Assembly (NCBI GenBank): GCA_951406725.2 | Contig: OX597823.1 | Span: 51,894,001 to 51,958,000 of the forward strand | Direction of reading: 5' to 3' | DNA: 64,000 nt | Source: Octopus vulgaris | Taxonomy: Eukaryota | Shown: one piece after another, positions 46,077-47,885 of the stretch | How positions within the stretch are numbered: the stretch's first letter is position 1 | Layout: each line of letters opens with the position of its first letter | Made by a program: the position numbers and the translations under genes | Notes under the pieces: generated by a model | Told to the model about the DNA's origin: nothing | Database searches by the model: none | Seen by the model: only the letters and a program-made list of their open reading frames with translations

Positions 46077-47885
46077 ATTCTCTAAAAGAGATATAGACAG
46101 TAACTGCTCGATAACATAAGGGACTAAAGCCATCTGAATATGGCTAGGGACAGGGCAGGGTGGTGGGGGTGTTACTGTTGCATTTAGCCCCAGGCGAACA
46201 TCGACGTCACCAGAAAGGCTCGACACCGTCACAGTGTCCTTATCCTGCAAAGGGAGGTAATTCCCCGATGAAGCGGAAACCACACACGGACCATGGTTTC
46301 AAGGTGTATTGCCTATCGTCGGCGTGTGGTAGGCTTCCGCTTCCTCGACGAACTCTCACTCTGCAGGATATTCATATATAGATTTTCAAGCAAAATACAT
46401 TTGCTGATTTCGAAAATCTGTTCGAAAGCAATAATAATTCTCTAAAAGAGATATAGACAGTAACTGCTCGATAACATAAGGGACTAAAGCCATCTGAATA
46501 TGGCTAGGGACAGGGCAGGGTGGTGGGGGTGTTACTGTTGCATTTAGCCCCAGGCGAACATCGACGTCACCAGAAAGGCTCGACACCGTCACGGTGTCCT
46601 TATCCTGCAAAGGGAGGTAATTCCCCGATGAAGCGGAAACCACACACGGACCATGGTTTCAAGGTGTATTGCCTATCGTCGGCGTGTGGTAGGCTTCCGC
46701 TTCCTCGACGAACTCTCACTCTGCAGGATATTCATATATAGATTTTCAAGCAAAATACATTTGCTGATTTCGAAAATCTGTTCGAAAGCAATAATAATTC
46801 TCTAAAAGAGATATAGACAGTAACTGCTCGATAACATAAGGGACTAAAGCCATCTGAATATGGCTAGGGACAGGGCAGGGTGGTGGGGGTGTTACTGTTG
46901 CATTTAGCCCCAGGCGAACATCGACGTCACCAGAAAGGCTCGACACCGTCACGGTGTCCTTATCCTGCAAAGGGAGGTAATTCCCCGATGAAGCGGAAAC
47001 CACACACGGACCATGGTTTCAAGGTGTATTGCCTATCGTCGGCGTGACGGTGTCGAGCCTTTCTGGTGACGTCGATGTTCGCCTGGGGCTAAATGCAACA
47101 GTAACACCCCCACCACCCTGCCCTGTCCCTAGCCATATTCAGATGGCTTTAGTCCCTTATGTTATCGAGCAGTTACTGTCTATATCTCTTTTAGAGAATT
47201 ATTATTGCTTTCGAACAGATTTTCGAAATCAGCAAATGTATTTTGCTTGAAAATCTATATATGAATATCCTGCAGAGTGAGAATTCGTCGAGGAAGCGGA
47301 GGCCTACCACACGCCGACGATAGGCAATACACCTTGAAACCATGGTCCGTTTGTGGTTTCCGCTTCATCGGGGAATTACCTCCCTTTGCAGGATAAGGAC
47401 ACCGTGACGGTGTCGAGCCTTTCTGGTGACGTCGATGTTCGCCTGGGGCTAAATGCAACAGTAACACCCCCACCACCCTGCCCTGTCCCTAGCCATATTC
47501 AGATGGCTTTAGTCCCTTATGTTATCAAGCAGTTACTGTCTATATCTCTTTTAGAGAATTATTATTGCTTTCGAACAGATTTTCGAAATCAGCAAATGTA
47601 TTTTGCTTGAAAATCTATATATGAATATCCTGCAGAGTGAGAGTTCGTCGAGGAAGCGGAAGCCTACCACACGCCGACGATAGGCAATACACCTTGAAAC
47701 CATGGTCCGTGTGTGGTTTCCGCTTCATCGGGGAATTACCTCCCTTTGCAGGATAAGGACACCGTGACGGTGTCGAGCCTTTCTGGTGACGTCGATGTTC
47801 GCCTGGGGCTAAATGCAACAGTAACACCCCCACCACCCTGCCCTGTCCCTAGCCATATTCAGATGGCTTTAGTCCCTTATGTTAT
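46071..47885. mobile_element. Retrozyme-like 360-bp tandem array, two arms in inverted (head-to-head) orientation
   Basis: Left arm 46071-47046 (about 2.7 units) and right arm 47043-47885 (about 2.3 units) join at a CGTG microhomology; units nearly identical; one type I HHR per unit; flanked by (TA)n. Confidence 0.85.
47668..47713 (+). ncRNA. Type I hammerhead ribozyme (atypical CCGACGA core); copies at 47308-47353(+), 46283-46328(-), 46643-46688(-), 47003-47046(-)
   Basis: CACACG-CCGACGA-TAGG caataca CCTT-GAAA-CCATGG-TC-CGTGTG. Helix III is a 6-nt palindrome, predicted GUC cleavage after 47707, and helix I extends via GAAGCGGAA/TTCCGCTTC. Confidence 0.85.

Follow-up and report, generated by a model that had tools for sequence, protein, structure and literature searches.

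The repeat units of animal non-LTR retrozymes measure 350–390 bp in mussels, and in Xenopus 24 of 57 retrozyme families match annotated elements, nearly all of which are pLTRs of Penelope-like elements (PLEs), according to the descriptions by Cervera and de la Pena (2020, PMC7229834) and Li et al. (2026, preprint 10.64898/2026.07.22.740005). The mobilisation of animal retrozymes is still stated as open in the literature. PLE insertions are described as having a 30–40 bp tail at one end and as targeting (TA)n sequences (Craig et al. 2021, PMC8557442). In the anole PLE, PAc, the tail ends coincide with two internal start sites of the reverse transcriptase (RT), and the required RNA spans positions +20 to +172 of the ORF, a stretch that surrounds and follows the hammerhead, which is cut at +26; insertion persists in hammerhead mutants (Frangieh et al. 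2024, PMC11167929). PLE RTs are the closest retrotransposon relatives of telomerase RT, and where they recognise their RNA has so far been mapped in a single element, to an interval of roughly 150 nt.

The window analysed here is a stretch of 64,000 nucleotides of the Octopus vulgaris genome (GCA_951406725.2, contig OX597823.1, positions 51,894,001 to 51,958,000). What is new is a clade of retrozymes having an uncatalogued structured domain that is tied to PLE end sites. The literature and Rfam, as searched, contain no description of this domain, and subscription papers, supplements and repeat databases may list its families.

Retrozyme insertions of the window

The domain is carried by ~350-nt non-coding tandem repeats. 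No coding frame was found in their units, all of which contain a type I hammerhead whose helix III is short and palindromic. This arrangement fits non-LTR retrozymes, self-cleavage and circularity being predicted properties. As judged from their sequences, the families are homologous (46–100% identity) and are not independent inventions.

The family-A insertion (46071–47885, both strands, inverted, 360-nt unit) lies between (TA)n runs and is composed of a minus arm of 2.7 units (46071–47046) and a plus arm of 2.3 units (47043–47885). In its last unit, the type I hammerhead with its palindromic helix III is at 47667–47716(+), and cleavage is predicted after 47707(+). The core reads CCGACGA (U4C), as the family has CCGAYGA in place of CUGANGA. 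Family A is nevertheless young, its 40 best genome matches being 99–100% identical, with 1,310 first-look candidates, and this is in line with the insertion of hammerhead mutants of the anole element. Variant hammerhead cores are found in families A, E, F, L and M, and a U3-A8 core variant has already been described (PMC4209133). Hammerhead-like motifs with the U4C change (CCGA for CUGA), seen by eye and predicted only, occur in three unrelated elements, at 47674–47680 (family A), at ~61199–61205 (a Neptune-type element) and at 52248–52285(-) (a palindromic element, 52210–52994).

The old family-B insertion (47958–48275(+)), whose relatives are 74–86% identical, has a decayed hammerhead (48006–48051(+)), in which GAAA reads AAAA. 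The young family-C insertion (53837–54106(-), 353-nt unit) has relatives that are 99–100% identical and 2,899 first-look candidates. The window copy retains the 3' half of the hammerhead, with predicted cleavage after 54057(-); the 5' half is lost at the inversion junction and is intact in other copies. The family-C hammerhead matches Rfam Hammerhead_1 with an E-value of 3.6e-6 and 32.2 bits, just under the 34-bit cut-off. A 383-nt contig spanning one retrozyme unit is equally compatible with a circle and with a tandem array. Words of family C also occur in sequencing runs labelled as seven coded organisms from ten studies, the kind of run being unrecorded or guessed. None of these runs is recorded as RNA, and the four that were compared with the family consist of contigs. 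Another family of hammerhead-bearing repeats is present in the window at 37530–37700(-) and 38855–39020(+) and in the flank at 45900–46030.

The H3 hairpin and the surrounding domain

The first-pass annotation had described an unnamed motif, here called H3, ~70–80 nt 3' of the hammerhead in the three families. All three hairpins are present in the sequence, at 47776–47813(+) in family A, 48125–48160(+) in family B and 53945–53979(-) in family C (the AAA being counted in), and they start 68, 79 and 77 nt, respectively, from the cleavage site. That annotation is also right about the hairpin 5' of H3, about CAGTA.CAC and GCCAT..ATGGC farther downstream and about helix III being a palindrome. H3 is made up of an outer stem, a CU/UGG internal loop, an inner stem and AAA. 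Five further copies in the same 360-nt family-A array, at 47056 and 47416(+) and at 46940, 46580 and 46220(-), bring the window total to eight, derived from three independent insertions. In 100 composition-matched shuffles, the structural descriptor finds 0.19 copies on average and never more than 1. Across its own genome (2.8 Gb), the tight pattern has 4,581 matches and the reversed control has none. These copy numbers, obtained from pattern matches and first-look candidates, are lower bounds. The pattern has no matches in the viral and the metagenome contigs; in prokaryote genomes there are 13 matches, where ~14 are estimated by chance, and none scores above 14.1 bits with the covariance model. 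Animal DNA is scarce in these collections and diverged homologues escape an exact pattern; the scans therefore say little on the range of the domain, which is so far seen in one genome.

H3 does not stand by itself but belongs to a predicted ~170-nt domain of six or seven helices that is common to many retrozyme families of the genome. In the predicted fold, H1, H2 and H3 are followed by a stem P, inside which lie H4, H5 and, at site 1 (one of two sites at which copies end), a weak hairpin; H6 comes last. In the last family-A unit, H1 is at 47730–47744(+), H2 at 47758–47774(+) (with double changes at two of its five pairs), the 5' strand of P at 47818–47826(+) and H5 at 47852–47867(+). H5 is near-invariant and consists of a 4-bp GCCA/UGGC stem and an 8-nt loop with two conserved U. 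The partner strand of P is missing from this unit and present in the previous one (47532–47539). The family-B copy contains, in 5' to 3' order on the plus strand, H2, H3, P, H4, H5 and H6 (model score 115 bits), and the family-C copy, in which H5 is at 53899–53914(-), scores 143 bits. The domain is positioned with little variation: the distance from the hammerhead cleavage site to the end of H5 is 158–163 nt in 10 of the 11 families measured (149 nt in the other), and that from H5 to the matched P motif is 21–24 nt in 13 of 14, the outlier of 18 nt being probably due to a chance occurrence of the search motif ahead of the true one.

The comparison of families used 292 distinct copies, which fall into 15 families of at least three copies (230 copies) and smaller clusters (62 copies). 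The alignment has 17 rows, the 15 families and two rows from an earlier clustering; two rows are single real copies. The mean identity is 62% and the minimum 46%. In this alignment, made from sequence only, double changes are found at 17 of 48 predicted pairs. The maximum in tree-based nulls (n = 200) is 5 on the fixed structure and 9 after refolding, and the consensus energy is -61 as compared with -37 for the best of the 200 nulls. The nulls, in which substitutions are reshuffled along the tree, were purpose-made and are not those of R-scape. In an alignment of 20 real copies, 14 of 29 pairs have double changes, including five of the seven pairs of stem P, and 93.4% of the cells pair, as compared with 26–49% when the partners are slid, the structure being derived from the same alignment. 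H5 has no double changes and 98.8% of its cells are paired. A targeted search found U-A instead of C-G in the outer stem of H3 in families L and M. In the all-against-all pair test no pair is significant alone, the best E-value being ~1 per alignment, and no pseudoknot is apparent, as the top non-nested pairs are at the null level. The unpaired loop positions of H3 and H5 and the H5 stem are constant letter for letter while the neighbouring stems covary; the H3 loop letters and the H5 stem with its UU are kept as sequence and not through covariation. Single copies differ in how well they fold: a family-C copy has a z-score of -3.75 relative to shuffles, and a family-A copy, which has no H4, is no better than its shuffles (z -0.8).

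The domain matches no family of Rfam 15, and beyond the hammerhead the A, C and D units give nothing better than an E-value of 0.39; in an Rfam scan of 45500–55000, with E-values of 10 or lower accepted, artefactual miRNA matches to microsatellites dominated the output. The proposal of the first-pass annotation that the motif belongs to no known class thus agrees with these searches, the hammerhead excepted. Its other proposal, a selected structural element, is borne out in aggregate (17 of 48 pairs against a null maximum of 9) and not at the level of any single pair. Taken as a whole, the covariation supports a structural element under selection that belongs to no catalogued class. Likenesses to H/ACA, SECIS, K-turn, HDV-like and IRE elements were dropped for lack of an Rfam match.

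Copy ends, candidate partners and possible function

Of the 221 copies analysed, 168 end and the other 53 continue into the following unit. Ends were scored solely in copies that contain H5, and they fall at site 1, 10–23 nt after H5 (91 copies), at site 2, 54–78 nt after H5 (72 copies), or elsewhere (5 copies); site 2 is less certain in groups LM, G and H, for which the references have no run-on partner. In family C the ends are sharp, at +13/16 nt and +58–62 nt after H5. The 5' truncation points are scattered. In inverted insertions, the two arms use one site each in 40 of 44 cases, where independent arms would lead one to expect ~20. Arms that are inverted and truncated at the 5' side, only one end having a tail, are the signature of PLE mobilisation, and the one-arm tail pattern is seen in all three window insertions and in the autonomous PLE of the window. 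The plus arm of family A ends at site 1 (47885), 18 nt after H5, where it is joined to (TA)n, and the minus arm continues into a tail (46071–46111(-)), which contains the 3' strand of P and H6 and stops at end site 2, at a distance of 58 nt from H5. In family B, a short inverted arm ends at site 1 (47958) and the other end is site 2 (48275); in family C, a 25-nt inverted arm ends at site 1 and site 2 is at 53837. The ends are flanked by (TA)n in 32 of 33 cases in family C, in 13 of 17 in family A and in 3 of 55 in the old family D, a contrast that may reflect either a change of helpers with time or the decay of flanking sequence.

Because the tail ends of the anole PLE are RT start sites, the ends of the retrozyme copies can be read as probable RT starts; the domain lies immediately 5' of these ends and surrounds them in part. 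The fold is tied to these sites, because P pairs across site 1 and because the tail, which is structured and 43–60 nt long, is made of the 3' strand of P and of H6. The fixed distance of the domain before both end sites suggests that it marks where the enzyme binds and starts. It is probable, at roughly 55%, that the domain is a signal for RT binding and start positioning by which a Penelope-type RT is borrowed, the partner being either a PLE outside the sample or enzymes acting in trans. RT recruitment had been one of the guesses of the first-pass annotation, and the positions of the copy ends speak for it, indirectly, whereas an autonomous PLE carrying the domain was not found among the loci sampled. 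Following PLE biochemistry, transcripts of tandem retrozymes would fold the domain and a PLE protein would nick AT-rich or (TA)n DNA on both strands. Priming would then occur from one strand at 10–23 nt after H5, within the loop that P closes, and from the second strand at 54–78 nt after H5, beyond H6; incomplete cDNAs off both primers would account for arms that are inverted and 5'-truncated. The invariant unpaired letters (the H3 internal loop and AA) and the H5 stem with its UU are putative protein contacts in this scheme. It is also conceivable, if rather unlikely, that the domain is an adaptor with no counterpart in autonomous elements, an RNA that captures and activates RTs of different PLE families in trans by means of a P6.1-like H5; this would explain why the domain has survived both in old families outside (TA) targets and in young ones that target (TA)n.

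The search for the partner included the intact, young PLE of the window (56548–61405(+)), which lies outside the domain copies. All 147 scored matches of this element are 100% identical, and the genome has at least 147 protein-identical matches. Its ORF1 is at 57176–58468(+), the frame with RT and GIY-YIG at 58375–60702(+) and a hammerhead-like motif at ~61190–61251(+). The RT, the CX2-5CxxC linker and the C-terminal GIY-YIG, which are features of the Neptune clade as described in PMC8557442, are all present, and the element is classed as Neptune-type by these features. ORF1 overlaps the RT-endonuclease frame at an A-rich stretch, with a possible -1 frameshift. The element also has an inverted 5' arm and is a candidate enzyme for in vitro work. 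The domain model, with filters off, finds nothing better than an E-value of 1.9 in this element. Nor does it find the domain at the 3' side of a further 64 RT loci (40 + 20 + 4) or in two metagenome relatives, and a PLE protein scan of the prokaryote genomes gave nothing. The RT loci were picked by four codon patterns around the DKG motif, which miss clades with another motif; sampling of loci was partial, a break cuts off the 3' end of many of them and decay has affected the Poseidon-type family. Within this sample, no 3' region in common with the pLTR of an autonomous partner was found. The model does hit L183 and L187, but there the matches belong to separate insertions on the far side of (TA)n runs, and a pair of hits in L217 is 2.6 kb from a decayed RT piece. 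The young family L186/L273/L274, whose 3' end is not clearly reached, has one weak hit (15 bits, E 0.11). In all four autonomous families whose 3' ends were reached by eye, these ends are AT-rich, and the enzymes of these four families would therefore need no such fold in cis.

In two autonomous PLE families, L203–L205 (~3360–5420, after the ORF end) and L186, 3' regions of at least 2 kb, largely simple repeats, are copied along with the element. In the Neptune-type loci L275–L277 (~3550–3980), repeated CCAAT and TGACGTC motifs are followed by a TATA-like box, which is likely to be an internal promoter for the next tandem copy. A 9-letter stretch just 5' of site 1 is common to L183 (3680–3700) and retrozyme family E and may be due to chance in AT-rich DNA.

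The absence of the domain from all sampled autonomous PLEs would be expected if solely non-coding circles need it. The domain could then be the binding place of a host protein needed for the stability, ligation, export or shielding of the circular RNA, for example with the hammerhead blocked, the ends being set by local sequence only. Such a role is possible, if doubtful: the hammerheads of animal retrozyme circles are argued to be blocked by something beyond self-pairing (PMC7229834), and the domain keeps its distance from the hammerhead no less strictly than its distance from the ends, but P spans site 1 and the tail is built from the domain itself, which links the fold to the ends. Moreover, the other hammerhead family of the window (37684 and 38855) has no match to the covariance model, so the domain is not general to hammerhead repeats. 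It is unlikely that the helices are only an inherited compactness, kept for general RNA stability with no specific recognition, because the H3 and H5 loop letters and the H5 stem are invariant amid covarying stems and because spacer lengths are conserved. Compactness would agree with the descent of all rows from one ancestor at 62% mean identity, with the lack of individually significant pairs and with the generally high pairing predicted for retrozyme circles (PMC7229834).

The remaining alternatives concern the conserved letters and H3 itself. A DNA-level internal promoter is most improbable as the reason for the conserved letters, since the compensatory pair changes point to selection on a single-stranded structure and the invariant columns hold no B-box-like motif. 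It would be compatible with the observation that the repeats lack the CCAAT/TATA-rich stretch found 3' in two autonomous elements. The 5' strand of H3 may also loosely resemble a tRNA-type A box. A second self-cleaving or ligating ribozyme, formed by H3 alone or with its neighbours, had been another guess of the first-pass annotation. It finds no support in Rfam, loop shape or truncation points and is very unlikely. Two stems around a conserved internal loop do give H3 the outline of the 31–35-nt twister-sister-like ribozymes, but its loop is 4–5 by 3 nt and has no conserved CA, whereas theirs is described as 5 by 6 nt with CA (PMC11620745), and the lantern assignment fails on these two points. 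The Rfam comparison of the A, C and D units, the lack of a pile-up of 5' truncations at H3 and the lack of an apparent pseudoknot also argue against a ribozyme.

Comparison with known systems

With RT binding and start positioning as the preferred reading, the clade offers a compact, covariation-supported fold whose end sites are mapped, together with two families that are young and a PLE that is both young and intact. Since all of these share one genome, the questions of PLE recognition and retrozyme mobilisation become directly testable. The surprise is limited, because structured cis signals are expected in principle and the domain is seen in one genome.

The CR4/5 domain of telomerase RNA with P6.1 (Logeswaran et al., PMC8480181) is likewise a junction with a short invariant hairpin having two conserved loop U, and likewise adjoins an RT, here one related to telomerase RT. 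This is an analogy only: there is no telomerase match in Rfam, a template, a pseudoknot and an H/ACA domain are not seen in the retrozyme domain, and molluscan telomerase RNA itself is described as lacking P6.1 (PMC8480181).

The anole Poseidon element PAc is compared by description. In both cases the region is just 3' of the hammerhead, two start sites, putative ones in the octopus, bound the tail and the target is AT-rich (PMC11167929). In PAc the starts are 85–92 nt after the cut, in an AC-rich stem-loop inside the ORF, and the tail is 30–40 nt long, whereas in the octopus copies site 1 is ~172–178 nt after the cut, the 43–60 nt tail is structured and there is no ORF. Neptune-clade PLEs are also described as tandem or inverted and 5'-truncated, with a tail on one end only and (TA)n targets (PMC8557442); unlike the octopus retrozymes, the sampled Neptune-type elements are without the domain, and the old family D is not flanked by (TA)n.

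The described animal non-LTR retrozymes (PMC7229834; 10.64898/2026.07.22.740005) share with the octopus repeats the ~350-nt non-coding tandem units, the type I hammerhead in each unit with its short palindromic helix III and the co-occurrence with PLEs. The descriptions mention no conserved covarying domain 3' of the hammerhead. In contrast to Xenopus, no matching pLTR was found here among the sampled PLE loci. Beyond the described retrozymes, the octopus copies have inverted arms and two ends, which are direct genomic evidence for a PLE-type mobilisation.
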